The notes: generated by a model from the letters alone, not told the origin. Positions 7,924-40,958 are shown, counted from the first letter of the stretch. The stretch: DNA of 46,875 bases from a virus (IMGVR_UViG_3300033068_001916), one strand, 5' to 3'. Numbers and translations: made by a program.

Positions 7924-7961
7924 AAACTTTATGTGGTATTTCACATATACCTTGTTATAAA
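7924..7961 (+). repeat. Half attC-like site H0 (right arm only)
   Basis: 37/38 nt identical to the right arm of H5 (9768-9805); no left arm upstream. Confidence 0.8.
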
Positions 7962-7972
7962 CTGTAAAAATT

Positions 7973-8176
7973 ATGAAATTAATAAAAAATATAGTAAAAA
8001 CTGATTTTATAACTTCTACAAATATACTTTTACTAAAAGGTCAGGAAGTTAGAACTATTTACACTCCTGATTCTGTTCACGGGGATAGATTTATAGATAT
8101 TTGGAGGTGCATTGATGGTTCGTATTGTGGTGGCTTAAATCCAAGATTAGAAGCTGATTATTTAGAAGAAATTTAA
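7973..8176 (+). CDS. Cassette ORF C1, hypothetical
   Basis: 67 aa, between GTTA 7954 and TAAC 8208. Confidence 0.65.
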   Translation: MKLIKNIVKTDFITSTNILLLKGQEVRTIYTPDSVHGDRFIDIWRCIDGSYCGGLNPRLEADYLEEI

Positions 8177-8207
8177 TATTAAACGCATTTTTGGATAAAC
8201 TTTTACA

Positions 8208-8336
8208 TAACGTTCGAGTGCTTTACGTCCGTTGTGGCTAAATAAGCACTAAACTTTCCTGTTATCACGAAATTAAACTGATGCAAAACAATAATTAAAT
8301 CAATCACAATGTAGCAATAGCGTGTAATTGCTGTTA
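8208..8336 (+). repeat. attC-like site H1 (129 bp, chimeric)
   Basis: Left 85 nt are 81/85 identical to H12, but the right arm differs and does not pair with the left arm. Confidence 0.75.
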
Positions 8337-8348
8337 TAAGTAGCTTTT

Positions 8349-8630
8349 ATGATTAGAAAATATAAAATAATAGCAGAAGTAGAAATAGATATTCAAAAGA
8401 TTTTTAAAGACAATATAAAAGATTATATAGAAGATGATAGTATTTCAGATGAAGCGTATGCAACTCAATCTATCTATGGCGTAATACGAGATGGATGTAC
8501 TGAACAAGTAAAGGATAGATGTGAGTGGATGTTTAAAGACTGTTACGACCAGATAAAGCACCATAAGGAAGTAGATGTTTTAATTGGTAAAGAAATACTA
8601 AAAAGTCTAAAGATAAACGTTATCGAGTAA
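8349..8630 (+). CDS. Cassette ORF C2, hypothetical
   Basis: Flanked by gttataagtaGct and agTtacttataac. Confidence 0.7.
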   Translation: MIRKYKIIAEVEIDIQKIFKDNIKDYIEDDSISDEAYATQSIYGVIRDGCTEQVKDRCEWMFKDCYDQIKHHKEVDVLIGKEILKSLKINVIE

Positions 8631-8639
8631 AGTTACTTA

Positions 8640-8767
8640 TAACGTTTCCACAGCTTTGCGAGGTTGCGACCTAAAAACTTAAAATTTACAAACACAAAAT
8701 ACACTTAAAATGAGCAAAAATATTTCAAATACAGACCAAACCAAGCAATCTTGCAAAATTGGTGTTA
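8640..8767 (+). repeat. attC-like site H2 (128 bp)
   Basis: tttgcgaggttgc pairs with gcaatcttgcaaa; contains ATG 8710. Confidence 0.8.
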
Positions 8768-8964
8768 GTGGCAGTCTTTCTAAACGTGAAAAGCTATCAC
8801 TTTTATCAGCCGATATTTTTGCAAGGAGAAAAGATTATAATTTTCATTTAACAAGTGAATTGTGTGCCGTTATTTGGCTTTTGGGTAAAGGAACTAAAAA
8901 CGAATATGATTGTAAGGAAATTATAAATTCTGTTTATTCACAGTTCTTTCAAGATTGCCACTAA
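8710..8964 (+). CDS. Cassette ORF C3 with hairpin-encoded leader
   Basis: Starts inside H2, reads through GTT as Val (KIG-VSGS), stops at the TAA of TAAC. Confidence 0.7.
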   Translation: MSKNISNTDQTKQSCKIGVSGSLSKREKLSLLSADIFARRKDYNFHLTSELCAVIWLLGKGTKNEYDCKEIINSVYSQFFQDCH

Positions 8965-9259
8965 CGGTTGCAAATAAAAATATGTAAAATTAACGGATAT
9001 GGAAGATAAACTAAAAAAACATTTGAATTTTTGTAAAAAGTATCCAGAAACAATAGTAGGATATGAACAAGGTATAAATGTTTCATATTATTTGATGGAA
9101 GGGAACACACCACAAGTGGATTATTTCAAGGTTGGTGATTTAGTTAAAATGTATAATGAAAATCCAAATGTTTTTTCTGAATATAAAAACTTAAAAGATG
9201 ATTGGAACGATTTAATAACCACTGAAGGTAGTTAATTTTATTGTTTTTATTTGTTGTTA
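8962..9259 (+). repeat. attC-like site H3 (298 bp) with an ORF in its loop
   Basis: Left arm caaataaaaatatgtaaaattaac pairs with right arm gttaattttattgtttttatttg. Confidence 0.75.
8999..9235 (+). CDS. ORF inside the loop of H3, hypothetical
   Basis: 78 aa; the stop TAA is supplied by the right arm. Confidence 0.65.
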   Translation: MEDKLKKHLNFCKKYPETIVGYEQGINVSYYLMEGNTPQVDYFKVGDLVKMYNENPNVFSEYKNLKDDWNDLITTEGS

Positions 9260-9284
9260 TGTTCTCGTTTTAATGGAACATAAC
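9256..9284 (+). other. Empty 29-bp inter-site segment C4
   Basis: gttatgttc-tcgttttaatg-gaacataac. Confidence 0.8.
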
Positions 9285-9407
9285 GTTGAAGCATAACTGT
9301 AGTTTAGGATAAGTAAGCCTAATCTATCGAAGTTAAAAACCAAGTTCACAAGTACAAAAACAATTATAAATCAAGCCTGATACCTAAATTACTGTTATGC
9401 AGTGTTA
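9281..9407 (+). repeat. attC-like site H4 (127 bp)
   Basis: gcataactgtagtttagg pairs with cctaaattactgttatgc. Confidence 0.8.
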
Positions 9408-9434
9408 GGGTTAGGTTTTTTAAACATTTACATT

Positions 9435-9719
9435 ATGAAAAGCGAGGAATATAGAATTGTATTAAACAATGTGTTTGAAACAAAAGAAATTGGAAAAGAA
9501 TATTTTGACAGAATTTTATTGGATTTTGCAATGGCATACCATAAAGAGCAATTAGGTATACTTAATGAAAACACTTTTAATAAAGAAAAGTTTGGCGAAT
9601 TAGCTATTATTTTTTTAAATGATTTGCAAAATAAAGAGATTAATTGTAAACATAATTTAGATATAAACGGAGAATGTTTAAATAATTTCTACCAATGGCT
9701 GTGTAAAAATTACAGCTAA
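9435..9719 (+). CDS. Cassette ORF C5, hypothetical
   Basis: ATG 9435; stops at the TAA of TAAC; segment ends only partly complementary. Confidence 0.65.
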   Translation: MKSEEYRIVLNNVFETKEIGKEYFDRILLDFAMAYHKEQLGILNENTFNKEKFGELAIIFLNDLQNKEINCKHNLDINGECLNNFYQWLCKNYS

Positions 9720-9801
9720 CGACTGGGTATATGTGAAGTACCCAACGACAGACTTAATAATTAGTAGAAACTTTATGGGGTATTTCACATATACCTTGTT
9801 A
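9717..9801 (+). repeat. attC-like site H5 (85 bp)
   Basis: ggtatatgtgaagtaccc pairs with gggtatttcacatatacc. Confidence 0.85.
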
Positions 9802-9816
9802 TAAAACGTTTATTTT

Positions 9817-10104
9817 ATGGTAGAATTTAAAAATCCTTTGGTTAGGGTAAGATGTTTGGAATGTAGAGAAGAACATTTTATTGAAATGAAACATATTGGA
9901 ACTGATAAAGAACAAAGAAGTATTGGTTTTGAATATGAACACATATATAGAGGTGAATTAAAATGTTCTCATTGTGGGGAAGATATGAGATTATTAACAA
10001 CGATATTTGAATTTCCAAAAGTATTTTTAAATTATCACGAAACGAATAATGAATCTTGTTTAGTGATGGATGATATTACAGATGATTCGTTAAATGTTTT
10101 ATAA
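9817..10104 (+). CDS. Cassette ORF C6, zinc-ribbon protein
   Basis: CLEC...CSHC; flanks gttataaaacGttta and taaaTgttttataac. Confidence 0.7.
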   Translation: MVEFKNPLVRVRCLECREEHFIEMKHIGTDKEQRSIGFEYEHIYRGELKCSHCGEDMRLLTTIFEFPKVFLNYHETNNESCLVMDDITDDSLNVL

Positions 10105-10361
10105 CGTTTTGCAAATAGGCTTAGTAAAATTAAACTTAATGAAATATAATTATGAAAGGCAAATTACGAGAAATTCAAGCATACAGTAGTAATTCAAGTG
10201 ATGAATTGGATTATAAAAATAAATACTGGTTTCATCAATGGATTGGAAAAACAACTGCTTTAATTGAAGATGAGCATGGGAAATTGATAAAAGCTAAACA
10301 CACAGAATTTCGTTTTAAGACGGATGCTGATGTTTAATTTTATTGAGCCTATTTGCTGTTA
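10102..10361 (+). repeat. attC-like site H6 (260 bp) with an ORF in its loop
   Basis: gcaaataggcttagtaaaattaaac pairs with gtttaattttattgagcctatttgc (two G:T). Confidence 0.8.
10152..10337 (+). CDS. ORF inside the loop of H6, hypothetical
   Basis: 61 aa; the stop is supplied by the right arm. Confidence 0.6.
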   Translation: MKGKLREIQAYSSNSSDELDYKNKYWFHQWIGKTTALIEDEHGKLIKAKHTEFRFKTDADV

Positions 10362-10386
10362 TGGCATCGTTTTAATGTACCATAAC
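10358..10386 (+). other. Empty 29-bp inter-site segment C7
   Basis: gttatggca-tcgttttaatg-taccataac. Confidence 0.8.
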
Positions 10387-10497
10387 GGTTTGCAGATAAA
10401 AGCAGTTTTAAACTAAAATTAAATAATATGGACGAAAGTAAAATTATGGAAGATAACTCAAATAGAAGTGATGAAAAATTGCTTTTATCTGCTGTTA
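10383..10497 (+). repeat. attC-like site H7 (115 bp)
   Basis: gcagataaaagcagtttt pairs with aaaattgcttttatctgc; contains ATG 10428. Confidence 0.85.
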
Positions 10498-10682
10498 TGC
10501 GTAGTGCTTCTGAAATAGAAGAACGACTACGATGTGCGTTGGCTGGATTTGAACACTCAAAAGAATGTGGTGATATTGAAACAGCAAAAGAATATCAGAA
10601 AGACGCTGGTGTTCTATTTTGGGTGTTGGGTCGTAGTGGTAGTTATGAATATAAGGATGGTAAAATTACGTTGTGTGATTAG
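10428..10682 (+). CDS. Cassette ORF C8 with hairpin-encoded leader
   Basis: Reads through GTT as Val (LSA-VMRS). Confidence 0.7.
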   Translation: MDESKIMEDNSNRSDEKLLLSAVMRSASEIEERLRCALAGFEHSKECGDIETAKEYQKDAGVLFWVLGRSGSYEYKDGKITLCD

Positions 10683-10691
10683 CATTACGCA

Positions 10692-10820
10692 TAACGTTTT
10701 GCAGCTTCATTTCAGTTGCGTACCTAAGCACAAAGAAAACAAATAATCACTTAATAAAATTTAAAAAAATGAACAATTCAGATACAAACCAAGCGAAGCA
10801 ATTGAATGAAACTGCTGTTA
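10692..10820 (+). repeat. attC-like site H8 (129 bp)
   Basis: gcagcttcatttcagttgc pairs with gcaattgaatgaaactgc; contains ATG 10769. Confidence 0.85.
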
Positions 10821-11071
10821 ACAGTAGTATTTTTTATAACGCTTTTATAGGTAAAAAAGATTCAAACGGAATTGAATTAAAAAACGGAGATAATATAATT
10901 ATTGAGGTTTGTAAGCCTGATGGTGCTAATAGAAATGGAGTTTACCACAAAGGACAAATAATATATGAAAATTGTTCTTTCTCAATTAAAATGAAAAGAA
11001 GTGAAGAAACATTTGATACAAATCCTTTATCAAATTATGCTTCATATTGTAAAATAAATTTAAACAATTAA
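10769..11071 (+). CDS. Cassette C9 ORF a with hairpin-encoded leader
   Basis: Reads through GTT as Val (ETA-VNSS). Confidence 0.7.
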   Translation: MNNSDTNQAKQLNETAVNSSIFYNAFIGKKDSNGIELKNGDNIIIEVCKPDGANRNGVYHKGQIIYENCSFSIKMKRSEETFDTNPLSNYASYCKINLNN

Positions 11072-11075
11072 TAAA

Positions 11076-11261
11076 ATGGACTTAAGAAAACAATTCAAAG
11101 TTACAGACGATGTAGATAATAAAAGATTCGTCTTTGATTCAGTAGACAATAATTCTTGTTCTTATACGGTTGCGTATTACGAATGTGATTCTGACGAGTC
11201 TAATGCTTGGATTTGTGTTTGGAAAGCGAAAAAAGGAGAAATTGAACGAGCTTCTGTTTAA
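11076..11261 (+). CDS. Cassette C9 ORF b, hypothetical
   Basis: Second ORF within one segment (gttaacagtaGtatt ... aataTtactgttaac). Confidence 0.6.
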   Translation: MDLRKQFKVTDDVDNKRFVFDSVDNNSCSYTVAYYECDSDESNAWICVWKAKKGEIERASV

Positions 11262-11270
11262 TATTACTGT

Positions 11271-11318
11271 TAACGTCTGATGATAAACAATCGTTTTAAT
11301 GTTGTTTATCATTTGTTA
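11271..11318 (+). repeat. attC-like site H9 (48 bp, minimal)
   Basis: atgataaacaa-tcgttttaatg-ttgtttatcat. Confidence 0.8.
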
Positions 11319-11385
11319 TGTGTAGTTATCATTCTGGAAACATCTTATAAAAATACAGATATAATAAACAAAAATAAATAAATAT

Positions 11386-11907
11386 ATGAAACTAATAAAC
11401 GAAACTTTCTTAATTGATACCTTTGATAAAGTATTAAAATCAGGTGATTTACAAAAATTGGTAAATGTTAAAAAATCAGAATCTAATGAATTAGAAGAAC
11501 ATTTGATTTCTATTTCAATTACTTCTGATCAACATAAATTGATTAGATCCCTGAATATAGATGAAAAAACGGAAGAGTATCTATTATCTGAGCTCAAAGA
11601 TTATTTTTTCAAAAAAATACTAGATTTTGTTTATTCCAACTCGACAATATTAGATAAGAACGAGTTGTATCAGAATATAGATAATCAAATAGTGATAGGT
11701 AGTTCTGGTGCAATTATGGATATTCCTGAAAATGTATCTACGATTTTAGATTATAATAAAAGTTTCAGTGACAAAACATTAGTAGTCACAGATAGTGTTG
11801 ATTTAATTTTAGATTACAATTCGATAAAAATACAAACAATTGGTATGGGAGGATTTGCTCCTAAGATGATTTTGAAATTTAGTTTTTGTTTAGCTGACAC
11901 AGAGTGA
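11386..11907 (+). CDS. Cassette ORF C10, hypothetical
   Basis: 173 aa; flanks pair at 16/18 plus two G:T. Confidence 0.7.
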   Translation: MKLINETFLIDTFDKVLKSGDLQKLVNVKKSESNELEEHLISISITSDQHKLIRSLNIDEKTEEYLLSELKDYFFKKILDFVYSNSTILDKNELYQNIDNQIVIGSSGAIMDIPENVSTILDYNKSFSDKTLVVTDSVDLILDYNSIKIQTIGMGGFAPKMILKFSFCLADTE

Positions 11908-11917
11908 TAATTACACA

Positions 11918-12046
11918 TAACGATACTCAGATATATTTAGGTTTTCATTTTTAATATATACTAAAAATAATTTAACAATATGAAAAATAATAAACATGTA
12001 GAAAGTTTCGGAAAATTCAATGAAAACTTGAATATATCTGATGTTA
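11918..12046 (+). repeat. attC-like site H10 (129 bp)
   Basis: tcagatatatttaggttttcatt pairs with aatgaaaacttgaatatatctga; loop contains ATATATACTA and ATG 11980. Confidence 0.85.
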
Positions 12047-12228
12047 GTGAGAGTAAAAAATCAAATCTAAAAATAAATAAATTTCTTGAGGAATTAACAA
12101 TAATATCTCAAAAGTATAATATTTATTTAGATACAACTGATGATATGTTTATGACTGATGATAGTGGTGATATTGGTAGTATTAAATATGACGACAATCT
12201 AAATAAATATATTTATCAGAAATATTGA
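11980..12228 (+). CDS. Cassette ORF C11 with capsid-targeting-like leader encoded by H10
   Basis: MKNNKHVESFGKFNENLNISD-VSES. Confidence 0.7.
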   Translation: MKNNKHVESFGKFNENLNISDVSESKKSNLKINKFLEELTIISQKYNIYLDTTDDMFMTDDSGDIGSIKYDDNLNKYIYQKY

Positions 12229-12242
12229 TTTTTAATTATCAC

Positions 12243-12360
12243 TAACGTTCGATGGCTTGTAGCAGAACGTATAATTAAAAACAAACATTACAGACACAAA
12301 AGAATTATTAACCAACGATGGCAAAGTAGCCTAAAGTAGTTTTGCTACAAACCATTGTTA
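12243..12360 (+). repeat. attC-like site H11 (118 bp)
   Basis: atggcttgtagcagaac pairs with gttttgctacaaaccat. Confidence 0.85.
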
Positions 12361-12374
12361 TAAACAGTTATTTT

Positions 12375-12680
12375 ATGATTATAGTAAACTATTACCGAGA
12401 AGAAGATTGCAACCCTGAAACAGATGGTTATCATTTGCATTTAGCTGGTGTAATAAACGATACTTTAGATTTGCAATATGATATACAATTAATTACAGAT
12501 TGTATTGATAACGATATTAATTTTGAACCTAAAAATGGTATTTTATACGAATTACAATTGACAAGAGCAACTATTCAAGCAGACCCAGTTGATGAGCCAG
12601 CTTTTGCAATTAGAGAAATTATTGAATTAAAAAGATGTAAACATACTGGCGAATTTTCTCCTGAGTTAGTTCGGCTATAA
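12375..12680 (+). CDS. Cassette ORF C12, hypothetical
   Basis: ATG 12375 (track ORF starts at TTG 12342). Confidence 0.65.
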   Translation: MIIVNYYREEDCNPETDGYHLHLAGVINDTLDLQYDIQLITDCIDNDINFEPKNGILYELQLTRATIQADPVDEPAFAIREIIELKRCKHTGEFSPELVRL

Positions 12681-12687
12681 TTGTTTA

Positions 12688-12816
12688 TAACGTTCGAGTG
12701 CTTTACGTCCGTTGTGGTTAAATAAGCACTAACCTTTCCTGTTATCACGAAACAAAACTGATGCAAAACAAATTTAATATTAAACCTAAACCCACAATGG
12801 CGTAAAACACTTGTTA
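12688..12816 (+). repeat. attC-like site H12 (129 bp)
   Basis: agtgctttacgtccgttgtgg pairs with ccacaatggcgtaaaacact. Confidence 0.85.
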
Positions 12817-12841
12817 TGCCTAGTGCTTAAAATCAGAAATT

Positions 12842-13096
12842 ATGCAAACAAAAAAAGGATGGCATAAATCAGGACTTGATTTAACAGAATATTTAGATGA
12901 ACCTTGTGAAATTAACGAGGAATTATTTAATTACATACTAGAATGTACAGCTCCACAATATTTAGATTACGGATTAGGACAAACTGGAGAAGCTGAAAAA
13001 CACGAAGATGGTGTTGGATATTATATGACAGTTTCTTTCGTAAATAACAAGCACTTTTATTTAGGAATTTTACCAGAGTTCGTTCAGTCGCATTAG
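12842..13096 (+). CDS. Cassette ORF C13, hypothetical
   Basis: Flanks gttatgcctaGtgc and gcaTtaggcataac. Confidence 0.7.
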   Translation: MQTKKGWHKSGLDLTEYLDEPCEINEELFNYILECTAPQYLDYGLGQTGEAEKHEDGVGYYMTVSFVNNKHFYLGILPEFVQSH

Positions 13097-13099
13097 GCA

Positions 13100-13228
13100 T
13101 AACGGACGGCGTGTATGAGAAGTGGCGTGCCCACAAACACTAATATTAACTAAAAAACACTAACAAACCCAATAAATACAGTATTTAACAAGTGTGCCCA
13201 AAGTAGCCATTTTTTATACACGATGTTA
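13100..13228 (+). repeat. attC-like site H13 (129 bp)
   Basis: cgtgtatgagaagtggc pairs with gccattttttatacacg. Confidence 0.85.
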
Positions 13229-13258
13229 GTAGCTGTGTTTATTAAAGAATTTTAAAAT

Positions 13259-13483
13259 ATGGGAGATTTATTAGAATTAATGCAAGAATTTGAAAAAAGA
13301 AACAACACTTCAATATCCTTAGATTTATGTAGTGATGGGTCAGGAACTTTAAAAGAGTTTTGGGATGGTGATGAAATAAAATCGTTTGAAAATTCGTCTG
13401 AATTACGCTCGTTTTTAGCGAACGGAAAATTGAAAATGAAAGATGGTCGTTCTGTTAAACCTATTAAGATAGTGGCTCAATAA
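13259..13483 (+). CDS. Cassette ORF C14, hypothetical
   Basis: Flanks gttagtagctGtgtt and aacaTagctactaac. Confidence 0.7.
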   Translation: MGDLLELMQEFEKRNNTSISLDLCSDGSGTLKEFWDGDEIKSFENSSELRSFLANGKLKMKDGRSVKPIKIVAQ

Positions 13484-13492
13484 CATAGCTAC

Positions 13493-13618
13493 TAACGTTT
13501 TGCTACTACAAGCAGTAGCGTGCTGAAAAGCCTAAATTATCGGAGTTTGCCCGAACAAAGCAAGTGCAAAAAAATAATAACCAAAGCCAAATGAAGCTAT
13601 TGATTGTAGTAGCTGTTA
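13493..13618 (+). repeat. attC-like site H14 (126 bp)
   Basis: gctactacaagcagtagc pairs with gctattgattgtagtagc. Confidence 0.85.
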
Positions 13619-13645
13619 TACAACGGTTTTTAAACATCATTAATT

Positions 13646-13915
13646 ATGAAAACTAATAAACAATATAGATTTAAAGACAATCCAAAAGAAAAAGAATTTC
13701 ACGATAAATTCAAAGAAATGTTTGAAAGTAACGGAGTGACAGATAAAACTCTTTCATCAATAGTTTTTGGATGGAAAGATGATAGACAAAATGTTCCTGC
13801 AAAATATCTAACAGAAAAAGAAAAAGATATTTGCTTAAATATAATACAATGGTTAGGTTCTCCTGTTGGAAGCGGATTTCTTCGTGACTGCGGATTTTCT
13901 GAAACTGTTGTATAA
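13646..13915 (+). CDS. Cassette ORF C15 (recombinase-proximal), hypothetical
   Basis: Flanks gttatacaacGgttt and aaacTgttgtataac; stops at the TAA of TAAC. Confidence 0.7.
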   Translation: MKTNKQYRFKDNPKEKEFHDKFKEMFESNGVTDKTLSSIVFGWKDDRQNVPAKYLTEKEKDICLNIIQWLGSPVGSGFLRDCGFSETVV

Positions 13916-13968
13916 CTATATTATATATGTAATAAAATGTAACCCGTTAATTTTCAACAAGTTATATA
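13913..13968 (+). other. Candidate attI-like insertion site
   Basis: TAAC not followed by the usual hairpin; contains aaaatgtaac-cc-gttaatttt and a GTTA 8 nt before the recombinase ATG. Confidence 0.45.
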
Positions 13969-14772
13969 ATGAAAAATCAAAAAATTATAAAGATCTGTAA
14001 AGAAAAGTTTATATATTTAAACTATTCACCTAGAACAAGAGATAATTATATATCTCACATAAAACATTTTTTAGAAAGCTTAGAGGATAAACAGATCGTA
14101 CATTGTAATTCTTCTGATTTTCAATCATATTTGGATAATTACGACTTTACATCAGTCTCTCAACAAAACCAAATTATTAACTCTATTAGATTCTTATACA
14201 AAGAAGTATTGAATAAAAAGTATGATAAAGTTTCCTTTAGGAGGCCTAGATCCGAAAAGAAATTACCTAAAGTAATAGATGGTAATTTTATTAAAAAACA
14301 ATTAGGTAGTATTAAAAATCTAAAACATAAAGCGATACTCACCTTAACATATTCAGTCGGATTAAGAGTCTCCGAAATAGTAAATCTAAAAATTATAGAT
14401 ATTGATTCTAAAAGAATGTTAATTCATATAAAAAATGCTAAAGGTCGAAAAGATAGAATTGTACCTTTATCTCAAATTGTTTTAGAACTATTAAGAGAAT
14501 ATTTCAAAGAATATAAACCAAAAGAATTCTTATTCAATGGTCAAAACTCCCTACAATACTCAGTAGGGAGCTGTCAAAAGATTTACAAAAAGTATATCGA
14601 TAATAAATCATCTATACACACTTTAAGGCATTCCTCATTCACAAATTTATTAGAATCGGGGACAGATTTAAGAATAATACAGAAGATTGCGGGACATTCG
14701 AGTTCAAAAACAACAGAAATTTATACTCACGTTTCTAACAACCTTTTATCCAGGGTTAAATTACCAATATAA
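13969..14772 (+). CDS. Tyrosine recombinase/integrase, compact Xer-like, putative cassette integrase
   Basis: Intact catalytic set: GLRVSE, AKGRKDR, HTLRH, AGH, EIY; N-terminal SAM-like region YSPRTRDNY; no IntI insertion. Confidence 0.95.
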   Translation: MKNQKIIKICKEKFIYLNYSPRTRDNYISHIKHFLESLEDKQIVHCNSSDFQSYLDNYDFTSVSQQNQIINSIRFLYKEVLNKKYDKVSFRRPRSEKKLPKVIDGNFIKKQLGSIKNLKHKAILTLTYSVGLRVSEIVNLKIIDIDSKRMLIHIKNAKGRKDRIVPLSQIVLELLREYFKEYKPKEFLFNGQNSLQYSVGSCQKIYKKYIDNKSSIHTLRHSSFTNLLESGTDLRIIQKIAGHSSSKTTEIYTHVSNNLLSRVKLPI

Positions 14773-17534: not shown

Positions 17535-18002
17535 ATGAATAAGGATCTGGCAGAAGCTGAGGAGAGAGCTCTAAATTACATAAGATCAACTAAGGAATAT
17601 TCAGAAATGAATTTCCAGGATAATAATAGTAAAATATGGGTGGCACACAATTCTTTGATTGAAGCTGCCAAAATATATGTTATTGACAATTATAAATTGA
17701 TTGACGATTATTCTGGACTCGATTTAATATTAAGAAGCGGAGCAACCGGTGATAGATTCTATTTTGGACCAAAAAGATCGAGGGAGGTTTCAAGATCTGG
17801 CATGTTGACAAACATATTAAAGGATCTAGATTCTAGAACTATAACGATAGAGACATTTGATGATGCAATCTATGATTGGTCGGACGGAGATTTTTCTGTT
17901 GTCTTTAATGGGGTTTCCTATAATTGGATAGACAGCGATTCAGTTATAAACATAGCATCATACATAGAAAAAAAATTAGAAGAAAATGAAATACAATATT
18001 GA
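17535..18002 (+). CDS. Hypothetical protein
   Basis: 155 aa ORF. Confidence 0.7.
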   Translation: MNKDLAEAEERALNYIRSTKEYSEMNFQDNNSKIWVAHNSLIEAAKIYVIDNYKLIDDYSGLDLILRSGATGDRFYFGPKRSREVSRSGMLTNILKDLDSRTITIETFDDAIYDWSDGDFSVVFNGVSYNWIDSDSVINIASYIEKKLEENEIQY

Positions 18003-19104
18003 AACAATAAATGAATATGTAGCAAAGGGATTGATCGATAAATGCGAGCATAAGGAGCTTCCAATAGCTATTTATAAATATTCACGTAATTGTCAATTCG
18101 AATGGAATTGGGACGATGTAACGAAAAATATGAGAGGAACTGTTCTTGATGATGATGGTAATCTGATTGCCCGTACATTTCCTAAGTTCTTCAATATTGA
18201 TGAATCTAATGTACCTAATCTTAATTTTGAGGTTTTTGAAAAGCTTGACGGATCTCTTGGCATATTATTTAATTATGAAGGGGAATGGCATCTGGCAACA
18301 CAGGGATCATTCTATTCAGATGTTGCTATCTACGCCAAAGAAATATTGAAAAGAAATGAAACGTATAAGGAAGTTTTTTCTGAGAAATTTACTTTTCTTT
18401 TTGAGATCATCTACCCAAAGAATAGAATAGTTTGTTCCTATGGAGATGATGAGAAATTAGTTATGCTGGCTGCTTTTAATACAAATACAGGCAGAGAAGT
18501 TCCTTATCATGAATTAATTGATGTTGCAAATAGAACTGGGTTTGAATGCGCTAAAAGATATGATGGAATAAAAGATCTCAAGAAGATAAAATCCCTAATA
18601 GGAGATAATCAGGAAGGCTTTGTTATAAGATTTTCCGACGGAACAAGGATTAAAGCCAAGGGTGAGGAGTATGTTAGACTCCATGGGGTTCTAACATCAT
18701 TCTCCAATCTTGATATCTGGAGATGTTTAAAGGAGGGAACTGATTATAGATCTCTGATGGTTGATATACCCGATGAATATGACGCCTGGGTTACCAATGT
18801 TGAGGAGGATCTTCAATCCAATTTCAATTTTATAGATGCAACAATAAATGCTGAATATAAATTGATAGCAAAGAAGATCAAGAGTCAAATTCCAACAGAG
18901 GAGGAAAGATTAGACAGAAACTCTCCTGTACTTAAGGCATACAACAAGGAATTTTTTGAACTTGTAGAAGGCCATAGATTAGCTGGATATCTATTAGATC
19001 GTCATAGAAATAAAGACTATTCAGGATCGATATGGAATCAAATAAGACCTGAATATGAAAAACCATTTTGGACAGATTACTCAATGAAAAGAAACGAATT
19101 ATGA
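17986..19104 (+). CDS. RNA ligase, T4 Rnl1-like
   Basis: MRGTVLD...ARTFPKFFN, motif I EKLDGSL, FLFEII, QEGFVI, RIKAKGEEY. Confidence 0.85.
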   Translation: MKYNIETINEYVAKGLIDKCEHKELPIAIYKYSRNCQFEWNWDDVTKNMRGTVLDDDGNLIARTFPKFFNIDESNVPNLNFEVFEKLDGSLGILFNYEGEWHLATQGSFYSDVAIYAKEILKRNETYKEVFSEKFTFLFEIIYPKNRIVCSYGDDEKLVMLAAFNTNTGREVPYHELIDVANRTGFECAKRYDGIKDLKKIKSLIGDNQEGFVIRFSDGTRIKAKGEEYVRLHGVLTSFSNLDIWRCLKEGTDYRSLMVDIPDEYDAWVTNVEEDLQSNFNFIDATINAEYKLIAKKIKSQIPTEEERLDRNSPVLKAYNKEFFELVEGHRLAGYLLDRHRNKDYSGSIWNQIRPEYEKPFWTDYSMKRNEL

Positions 19105-39640: not shown

Positions 39641-39856
39641 ATGAAGGCAAAGATAACAAAAACTATGGCATTAGCCATTGAAGTAGGAATAGCAGAGCTA
39701 GAAAATAGCGGAATTTGGGAAGATGAATTGACGGGGAAAGAGAGAAAGAAAGTTTATAAAGGTATTGAGGAGCTTGAAGCTCTTCTTATGAAAATTGAAA
39801 CAAAGAAAAAAGATAAAAAAGATGGAAAGAAAACTAGCGACAATCAGGAAGATTAG
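39641..39856 (+). CDS. Hypothetical protein
   Basis: 71 aa ORF. Confidence 0.55.
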   Translation: MKAKITKTMALAIEVGIAELENSGIWEDELTGKERKKVYKGIEELEALLMKIETKKKDKKDGKKTSDNQED

Positions 39857-40958
39857 CGATCTCCAGCCTATCGAGGGAGCGGATCTTATAGAATTGGCAA
39901 TCGTCGATGGATGGAAGGTAGTAGTTGGTAAGGAGGTTGGACACAAGATAGGTGACTTTGTCATCTATTGTGAAGTGGATTCATTCCTTCCAATCAGGGA
40001 AGAATTTGAATTCCTTAGAAAGAGCTCATATAGAAAAATGGTTGATCAGGAGGGATTCCGTCTTAGAACAATAAAACTTAGAGGACAAGTTTCTCAGGGT
40101 CTTATCATTCCACTATCGATTCTTGAGGGTGAGGAAGATGACGAAAAACTTGGATATCTACAAACACCGGAAGGTCCAGTTTATCAATTAGGACCATATG
40201 ATGGTGCTCTAGTTATAGAGGAAGGTGCTGACGTTACAGTAATGCTTAATATCGTTAAATGGGATCCGCCAATTCCTGCTGAATTAGCAGGTGTTGCTAA
40301 GGGGAATTTCCCAAGTTTTATACCTAAGACCGACGAGGAGAGAATCCAAAATCTTGCAAAGAATTTTGAGAAGATGAAGGAACAAAAATATTACGTGACA
40401 GAGAAGCTGGATGGATCATCATCAACATTCTACGTTTATAATGGTGAGTTTGGAGTTTGCTCTAGGAATCTAGATTTGTGCCGTCCCGAGCCATTCGTGG
40501 AAGGTATGGTTATGTGTGAGGATGGGATAGAAAGACCTAAAAAGGAAAATACATTCTGGAAGGTTGCTAAAGAACTTAATATCGAGGAGAATATGCTTGA
40601 TATGGGAGGAAACTTTGCAATTCAAGGTGAAATTATAGGCGAGGGTATACAAGGTAATCCATATAGAATTAAAGGACAAACTCTTAGAGTTTATAATGTT
40701 TTTGATATTGATACACAAGAATACCTGGAACTTGAGGATTTTAAAATGAAAGTCAGAGCTCTTTGTTTGGAGACCGTTCCTATTATTGATGAAAACTTTG
40801 AACTCCCAGAAACAATAGATGAAATTCTAAAGTTCGCAGAAGGAAAATCGACACTAAACCAGACAGCGGAGAGAGAAGGCTACGTTATCAGAAGCTTAGA
40901 TAGAAAAACAAGCTTCAAAGCTATATCTAATAATTTTCTATTAAAGGAGAATGAGTAA
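39822..40958 (+). CDS. RNA ligase, Rnl2/DRB0094-like with N-terminal OB module
   Basis: RKLATIRKI...IEGADLIE, TEKLDGSS, QGEIIG, REGYV, FKAISNNFL. Confidence 0.85.
   Translation: MERKLATIRKISDLQPIEGADLIELAIVDGWKVVVGKEVGHKIGDFVIYCEVDSFLPIREEFEFLRKSSYRKMVDQEGFRLRTIKLRGQVSQGLIIPLSILEGEEDDEKLGYLQTPEGPVYQLGPYDGALVIEEGADVTVMLNIVKWDPPIPAELAGVAKGNFPSFIPKTDEERIQNLAKNFEKMKEQKYYVTEKLDGSSSTFYVYNGEFGVCSRNLDLCRPEPFVEGMVMCEDGIERPKKENTFWKVAKELNIEENMLDMGGNFAIQGEIIGEGIQGNPYRIKGQTLRVYNVFDIDTQEYLELEDFKMKVRALCLETVPIIDENFELPETIDEILKFAEGKSTLNQTAEREGYVIRSLDRKTSFKAISNNFLLKENE

Follow-up and report, generated by a model that had tools for sequence, protein, structure and literature searches.

The locus described here raises the question of whether a phage can own a gene-capture system of the integron type and, if so, which units move and which enzyme moves them. 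It lies in a stretch of 46,875 nucleotides from a large Bacteroidota phage, IMGVR_UViG_3300033068_001916 (called the window in what follows, at its full length), where 14 imperfect TAAC...GTTA hairpins in a single orientation alternate with small open reading frames (ORFs) between positions 7954 and 13916 of the + strand, and where a gene for a tyrosine recombinase follows. An earlier interpretation, made from the sequence alone, had described this array as an integron-like cassette system with a non-IntI recombinase. The array is confirmed here and all of its counts hold. We consider it likely that the locus is a phage-borne integron-like gene-capture platform, composed of a short IntI-family recombinase, an insertion site and a polar array of 14 cassettes.

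Site architecture and the adjacent recombinase

The hairpins share one design: TAAC, a G and 3–4 unpaired nt, a stem of at least 12 bp, a loop of 10–260 nt, the second half of the stem, 1–2 unpaired nt and GTTA. The coordinates bear out 14 complete copies (Table 1). A strict scanner (TAAC, 3–6 nt, stem matches at at least 10 of 12 positions, 0–2 nt, GTTA) recovers 12 sites in the array, all within 8962–13618, against a mean of 0.075 and a maximum of 1 in 200 dinucleotide shuffles of the array. Over the 46.9-kb window it finds no further site of the same asymmetry outside this interval and no site of the opposite asymmetry. The 16 cassette ORFs are each small (61–173 amino acids), and 16 of 16 lie on the + strand and point toward the recombinase gene.

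The flanks of the hairpins carry a second kind of order. The 12 nt following a GTTA are complementary, across the ORF, to the 12 nt preceding the next TAAC of the same segment at 9–11 of 12 positions; this holds in 11 of the 15 segments and in 11 of the 13 that bear an ORF. Neighbouring flanks on the two sides of a hairpin match at a mean of 3.9 of 12 positions only (permutation test, p <= 1e-5), as the sequence-only reading had maintained. Flanks 0.2–0.9 kb apart that pair in this way are brought together only when the unit is circular. Also as previously stated, four ORFs use the TAA of TAAC as their stop codon (stops at 8962, 9717, 10102 and 13913). At least four ORFs (8710, 10428, 10769 and 11980) start in a hairpin loop and run through GTTA, and two (8999 and 10152) lie wholly inside hairpin loops. 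Two details are corrected: the GTTA at 9394 pairs with the TAAC at 9294, not with that at 9281, and the R' site at 12043 falls within ORF 11980–12228.

Between the end of the array and the start of the recombinase gene lie 55 nt; at its other end this gene overlaps, by its stop codon, the beginning of a gene for an SF1 helicase. In an alignment of 69 distinct upstream regions from related loci, TAAC-TATTATATATA is conserved while the sequence directly to the left of TAAC is unrelated, which is the look that would be expected of an attI-like insertion site. Similarity of the window to about 15 loci likewise begins at 13906–13913, at the last TAAC.

The recombinase retains the catalytic residues R133, K158, H217, R220, H243 and Y252, which are invariant across the family. 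Its scores fall below the cut-offs of all the models compared: 169 against 220 for NF040815, 151 bits against 265 for the IntI model TIGR02249 (a match in two stretches that skips the insertion), and 141 bits against 335 and 330 for XerC and XerD, so that there is no equivalog-level match. Residues 178–210 align opposite VchIntIA 180–260, leaving about 48 residues fewer at the place of the IntI insertion; the additional domain around patch III, by which integron integrases are recognized (IntegronFinder; Mazel 2006), is thus missing. A tree of 45 sequences nevertheless separates XerC/D, with 100/100 support, from the phage clade, the bacterial short enzymes and IntI1/IntI2. Only these two canonical IntIs, both on a long branch, were included, and the branching order among the groups on the IntI side is unsettled. 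Within the tree the phage recombinases group with the enzymes of the cultured phages Freya and Ingeline at 98/93. Judged from these comparisons, the enzyme is a relative of the IntI family and not an unrelated one: the term non-IntI stands as far as the missing insertion is concerned and fails as a statement of descent. The same separation from XerC/D, the scores below their cut-offs and the presence of 14 folded sites instead of a single dif set aside XerC/XerD dimer resolution as an account of the locus. A shufflon, in which Rci swaps C-terminal exons between inverted sfx repeats, is rejected as well, since all hairpins and ORFs share one orientation and the scanner finds no inverted sites in the window.

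Table 1. Features of the array and its surroundings. Hairpin coordinates run from the first base of TAAC to the last base of GTTA.
Feature	Position	Strand	Basis or remarks
Cassette array	7954..13916	+	14 TAAC-to-TAAC units (hairpin and downstream ORF) plus distal segment 7954–8208
Array unit boundaries	8208, 8640, 8962, 9281/9294, 9717, 10102, 10383, 10692, 11271, 11918, 12243, 12688, 13100, 13493, 13913		
Distal array end: half-site with only 3' arm and GTTA, without TAAC partner upstream	7924..7957	+	77% identical to right half of hairpin 9717–9801 (family D4)
Hairpin 1, 129 nt, diverged stem; inner GTTAT at 8261 in loop	8208..8336	+	76% to 12688–12816 (family D1)
Hairpin 2, 128 nt; start codon of ORF 8710–8964 in loop, ORF reads through GTTA	8640..8767	+	
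Hairpin 3, 298 nt, loop holds whole ORF 8999–9235; then ORF-less 29-nt body 9256–9284	8962..9259	+	Stem 11/12; family D3
Hairpin 4; second TAAC 13 nt upstream at 9281	9294..9397	+	Arm comparison; scanner takes 9281 variant
Hairpin 5, 85 nt	9717..9801	+	Stem 12/12; matches about 12 related loci from 9715–9717
Hairpin 6, 260 nt, ORF 10152–10337 in loop; then ORF-less 29-nt body 10358–10386	10102..10361	+	25-nt arms, 92% complementary (pair I5)
Hairpin 7, 115 nt; ORF 10428–10682 starts in loop	10383..10497	+	Stem 12/12
Hairpin 8, 129 nt; ORF 10769–11071 starts in loop	10692..10820	+	Arm comparison, scanner
Hairpin 9, 48-nt standard site, loop TCGTTTTAATG	11271..11318	+	94–100% identical to dozens of copies in related arrays, matches from 11271
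Hairpin 10, 129 nt; ORF 11980–12228 starts in loop	11918..12046	+	23-nt arms, 91% complementary (pair I11); about 20 related copies
Hairpin 11, 118 nt	12243..12360	+	Scanner; 83% identical to hairpin of phage lillamy9-3
Hairpin 12, 129 nt, paralogue of hairpin 1	12688..12816	+	Scanner; 91% identical to FCL-2
Hairpin 13, 129 nt	13100..13228	+	Scanner
Hairpin 14, 126 nt	13493..13618	+	Scanner
attI-like insertion site, TAAC then TATATTATATATG..., up to recombinase start codon	13913..13968	+	Conserved TAAC-TATTATATATA
Tyrosine recombinase, 267 amino acids, IntI-family relative without IntI insertion	13969..14772	+	Pfam Phage_int_SAM_4 and Phage_integrase

Several further features of the array were seen. 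Eight of the 14 hairpins are 126–129 nt long despite differing sequences. The half-site at the distal end matches the same places in related loci as hairpin 9717–9801. The first GTTA (7954) is followed by a flank whose pairing partner is not the end of its own segment but the sequence preceding the TAAC at 9717 (7935–7967 with 9710–9742; 33 nt, 79%), a pattern suggestive of a composite in which several cassettes sit inside an older unit. The two ORF-less 29-nt bodies (GTTATG..TCGTTTTAATG..CATAAC) each follow a hairpin with a whole ORF in its loop, and their central 11 nt are the loop of the 48-nt standard hairpin. ORFs 8710–8964 and 10428–10682 resemble paralogues by eye, with a common WxLG motif region; the R arms flanking them differ in sequence, each pair still being complementary. 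Elsewhere the window encodes T4-like RNA ligases along with a glycosyltransferase, and it has an HNH gene; the ligase genes at 17986–19104 and 39795–40958, both outside the array, are of T4 type and differ from each other (phrog_562 and phrog_968).

Recurrence of the array and movement of its units

Relatives of the recombinase are numerous in IMG/VR (more than 200 at 62–87% identity). In a set of 82 loci, 80 from IMG/VR together with Freya_10 and Ingeline_1, the scanner places 382 hairpins that share design and orientation with those of the window upstream of the recombinase gene, as against 11 downstream of it, although more DNA was scanned downstream than upstream; 12 hairpins have the opposite asymmetry. 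About 80 loci with differing other flanks keep array and recombinase paired. Outside the hairpin families, the likeness of these loci to the window at the DNA level is almost confined to the recombinase gene and some 60 nt upstream of it, the neighbouring helicase gene being common only to L006. By the strict scanner, Ingeline (39% identity) has no hairpins and Freya only one.

Four length classes are seen among the hairpins of these loci (48, about 88, about 115 and about 126 nt), the 48-nt class having 69 members. Among 236 non-redundant segments from the relatives, 179 show flank pairing at at least 8 of 12 positions. Positions 1–6 and 8–11 after GTTA covary through all four bases, and position 7 is a G opposite T in 155 of the 179. 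The stems are biased as well: on the + strand G.T and T.G mispairs number 550 against 81 for A.C and C.A, and the + strand is the better-folding one in 253 of 281 hairpins. In 46 related arrays, ORFs of at least 50 amino acids point toward the recombinase in 411 cases and the opposite way in 80.

Which unit moves can be read from the blocks that different arrays have in common. Of 123 left ends of such blocks, 48 coincide with TAAC and 4 with GTTA, against a background of 7% each. Two complete units of the window, each a hairpin with its downstream ORF, recur elsewhere: 10382–10696 in L069 at 90% and 9709–10112 in L046 at 88% identity. Together with the block ends, this argues that the mobile unit runs from TAAC to TAAC and, in the arrays compared, the hairpin travels with the ORF downstream of it. 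The boundaries of the shared blocks rule out the converse arrangement, an integron read on the + strand in which each hairpin belongs to the unit of the upstream ORF. Since the hairpin moves with the downstream ORF, the canonical integron frame is that of the minus strand, with the genes antisense to those of usual cassettes.

Rearrangements have also occurred naturally. Between L019 and L033 the recombinase gene and the region that follows it are 97% identical, and a 1.8-kb cassette block agrees completely (100%). Both carry a 960-nt cassette (99.9% identical), which is distal to the 1.8-kb block in L019 and directly abuts the insertion site in L033; the last 114 nt of a second copy stand at the start of the L033 contig, right before the shared block. 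The cassette ends in ...ATTGTGTATAAC; in one context a hairpin comes next, in the other TATTTTATATA.... As different sequences follow the same cassette end, the junctions have only TAAC in common.

A second case comes from cultured Polaribacter phages. The whole 4,942-bp difference in length between Freya_1 and Freya_10 is one 12-ORF block directly upstream of the integrase gene, whose product is 35% identical to the recombinase of the window. The block is joined as ...TTTACAAC|GGATATGG and ...TTGCTAAC|ACCCC in Freya_10, while Freya_1 reads ...TTTACAAC|ACCCC, so that the block junctions fall at AAC. With a single hairpin detected, the Freya case rests on these junction sequences. The ten cultured Freya isolates, all from one host, range from 43,978 to 48,920 bp, and among the other isolates the extent of common sequence before the integrase gene tracks genome size. 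The paper describing these phages takes the integrase gene only as a sign of temperate potential (PMC8776804). In the window itself, the cassette end 8178–8214 matches the 3' end of lillamy9-3 gp017 at 97% identity and then continues into a different hairpin.

The sequence-only reading had proposed that cassette content and order be compared across relatives. The order is not fixed: units have been gained, lost and moved exactly at the AAC/GTT cores.

The cargo is largely without annotation. The 16 cassette ORFs of the window have no functional match in Pfam or PHROGs (the first 32 residues of ORF 8710–8964 match phrog_27194, and one further weak match is to phrog_34881, both of them uncharacterized phrogs), and Rfam at gathering thresholds gives nothing in the window. 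The related arrays hold about 380 distinct ORFs in 46 arrays, most of them without known function. Among the 64 largest are four N6_N4 DNA methylases, one MT-A70 methylase, the Thoeris inhibitor Tad6, an ART-PolyVal domain, an Rv2179c-like exoribonuclease, an RNA ligase and a glycosyltransferase. The idea of a library of anti-defence genes finds support in the cassettes of relatives, with none annotated in the window. As a part of the explanation favoured here, and with the same good likelihood, the cargo would be a pool of small, fast-turning accessory genes, some of them serving in counter-defence.

How the units may move

Most likely, the adjacent recombinase excises and inserts units at the AAC/GTT core in the manner of an integron integrase. 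Read on the minus strand, the locus has the canonical integron layout, with the recombinase gene diverging from the array and the insertion site beside it, and each cassette begins with TTAT..., continues through the gene body and closes with the attC-like site. The crossover would take place at G|TT of each site (ATAA|C on the + strand). By recombining two cores the enzyme would release a circle, in which the 10–15 nt flanks that bracket the ORF would meet and complete a long R-arm duplex whose position 11 is a fixed G.T mispair, and the circle would then re-insert at the insertion site. The genes would follow the transcription of the phage; many ORFs start inside a hairpin loop, so each unit may bring its own translation start. 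That this recombinase is the catalyst, that its substrate is folded single-stranded DNA, and which strand is used are all inferred. The claim that the adjacent enzyme shuffles the cassettes gains from its pairing with arrays in about 80 loci, and catalysis is proposed on the ground of that association; recombinase-dependent excision and insertion are likewise proposed on comparative evidence.

Bacterial relatives of the recombinase allow a comparison of the site. Those found in genome records (40–51% identity) belong to NF040815, named 'tyrosine recombinase/integron integrase'. Downstream of them lie attC-like arrays whose asymmetry is mirrored, 45 hairpins being of this class and 4 of the other three, and whose ORFs keep the usual cassette orientation. 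On the coding strand of these arrays A.C mispairs number 69 against 22 for G.T, and the polarity at position 7 is A against G in 13 of 18 cases, both the mirror image of the phage arrays. The minus-strand reading of the phage array accordingly agrees with the bacterial ones in spacer asymmetry, in the G.T bias of the stems and in the polarity of the position-11 mispair. A bias that in bacteria is mirrored onto the non-coding strand indicates that it follows the geometry of the site, with the canonical bottom strand, and not the mRNA.

Such arrays were noted beside bacterial short recombinases in L133 (9726–16329), L151 (10526–16692), L107 (11021–16412) and L091 (1953–5347), from Desulfitobacterium, Bacteroidota and Nitrospirota metagenome-assembled genomes; the enzymes there have 379–385 amino acids, are extended at the N terminus and lack the IntI insertion. 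Automated annotation would probably file these four arrays as CALINs, integrase-less clusters of at least two attC sites. A canonical IntI was not found in the three bacterial genomes searched that have a short recombinase beside attC-like arrays.

Some observations weigh against the platform proposed here. The IntI insertion binds the extrahelical bases of attC, and the domain is thought to be essential for attC chemistry; the recombinase lacks it and would have to recognize a folded site in some other way. No functional annotation is available for any of the 16 cassette ORFs of the window, and near-identical 48-nt hairpins could also support homologous recombination. Finally, two lytic Flavobacterium phages have the same hairpins: lillamy9-3 carries 12 of them in 10 kb with the same flank pairing (L002, 2009–7757), and FCL-2 carries one (L001, 6001–6130), 91% identical to one in the window (hairpin 1, 8208..8336, matches intergenic DNA of FCL-2 at this level). 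A PF00589 scan detected no tyrosine recombinase in either phage, so the adjacent gene is not required in cis. Smyshlyaev et al. (2021) describe the IntI insertion as not fully conserved in their integron-like subgroup.

The two lytic phages would be readily understood if the array were a CALIN-type cluster without a recombinase of its own, served in trans by the host or a co-infecting element, the adjacent gene being a lysogeny integrase or an Xer-like dimer resolvase with no role in cassette movement. Some phage attC sites are indeed recombined by IntI1 (PMC9892861), and the Freya, Leef and Ingeline genes have been called integrases indicating temperate potential (PMC8776804). We nevertheless hold this to be improbable. 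Adjacency, orientation and the conserved 55-bp junction persist in about 80 loci with differing other flanks, new cassettes appear exactly at the site beside the recombinase gene in L033, and the enzyme groups with integron integrases. Moreover, the 48-nt standard hairpin was not found, with up to 3 mismatches allowed, in 201 Flavobacterium genomes or in three Bacteroidota genomes carrying relatives of the recombinase, so there is no sign of a chromosomal source in these genomes. The same absence from the 201 Flavobacterium genomes bears on a passively acquired fragment of a host chromosomal integron. Integron fragments have been described in Vibrio phages by Qi et al. (PMC9892861), and the bacterial relatives do sit beside attC-like arrays; the phage recombinases, however, form a clade of their own (62–87% identity, against at most 51% for genome records) and the gene orientation is inverted relative to the bacterial arrays. 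On the strength of the separate clade and the inverted polarity we reject passive acquisition, which we regard as the least probable of the alternatives.

The hairpins could also be regulatory elements of the mRNA (terminators, processing sites or translational controls), shuffled by homologous recombination between conserved copies as proposed for T4-type promoter-stem-loop cassettes. The better folding of the sense strand in most hairpins, the ORF starts in the loops and the identity of 94–100% among 48-nt hairpins of different arrays all agree with such a role. They would leave unexplained why flanks 0.2–0.9 kb apart covary around a fixed mispair, why junctions at the insertion site have only TAAC in common, and why the hairpins are tied to one side and one orientation of the recombinase gene. 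Bacterial arrays built in the same way carry the G.T bias on the antisense strand, and with this mirrored bias an exclusively mRNA-based role is rejected; the explanation as a whole appears very unlikely, hardly more credible than passive acquisition.

The gene-capture platform might further be one member of a distinct integron class in Bacteroidota phages and many bacteria. In this class an insertion-less integrase would recognize folded sites by an 11-bp R arm bearing a fixed G.T mispair, canonical IntI would be a derived branch of the wider family, and phages would use the platform, in mirrored polarity, as a counter-defence library exchanged among unrelated phages; to this wider proposal we give an even chance. 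If true, integron-type gene capture would be confined neither to bacteria nor to enzymes with the IntI insertion, which would bear on the origin of integron integrases from Xer-like ancestors and on single-strand reading by a simple recombinase. Phages would own a dedicated site-specific route for trading small accessory genes between unrelated genomes, which could explain part of the phage hyperplastic regions, and the arrays would be a rich source of new counter-defence genes. The cultured Polaribacter phages Freya_1 to Freya_10, which already differ at the site, offer a ready laboratory model.

Comparison with known systems

A folded site is read by simple recombinases in the integration of CTX phage, where XerC/XerD, of the simple Xer type without the IntI insertion, act on a folded single-stranded hairpin that mimics a two-arm core site. 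That system differs in having one site, in integrating the whole phage without a cassette array and in relying on the enzyme of the host. Small modules bounded by short repeated sites and shuffling between replicons are known as the pdif modules of Acinetobacter plasmids and as T4-type promoter-stem-loop cassettes. The pdif sites are 28-bp, double-stranded and of alternating orientation, and the T4-type elements are believed to rely on homology; in neither system do flanks covary or does a dedicated recombinase lie alongside.

The closest phage counterparts are the CALINs that Qi et al. (2023) described in virulent phages, including Polaribacter phage P12002L (PMC9892861). They share attC-type sites between small ORFs, in phages of Flavobacteriia and others, and DNA methylase cargo; P12002L_attC1 has the same TAACGG...TCGTTTTAATG...TTGTTA design, its loop being that of hairpin 9. 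These phages have 2–3 sites each with no partner recombinase reported, whereas the window has 14 sites, a conserved recombinase and insertion site, and cassette movement at the population level. In the literature that we searched, no phage array linked to an insertion-less relative of IntI is described. The array of the window would probably be filed as a CALIN too, since its enzyme fails the IntI model, yet a conserved partner recombinase is present.

The likeness is greatest with integrons, especially sedentary chromosomal ones with uniform attC sites. In both, a recombinase of the IntI lineage lies beside a conserved insertion site and a polar array of cassettes; for the window this lineage, rather than that of XerC/D, is given by the tree, with its two canonical IntIs on a long branch. 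An attI-like site adjoins the integrase gene, as seen in 69 relatives and in the L033 insertion. The cassettes end in imperfect hairpins of attC type, in one orientation, with R''/L''/L'/R' boxes, AAC/GTT cores, an unpaired spacer among other unpaired features and crossover at the core. The first bases of a cassette are complementary to its own R'' box, insertion takes place at the recombinase-proximal end, and the canonical bottom strand folds better. The differences lie in the enzyme, which is without the IntI-specific insertion and scores below the IntI cut-off; in the R arm, of 10–15 bp with a fixed G.T mispair instead of 7 bp; and in the genes. Promoterless cassettes that point away from intI and are expressed from Pc are not what the array contains: its genes are antisense to usual cassettes, many have their start inside a hairpin loop, and a Pc at attI cannot drive them. 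The element, finally, resides in a phage.

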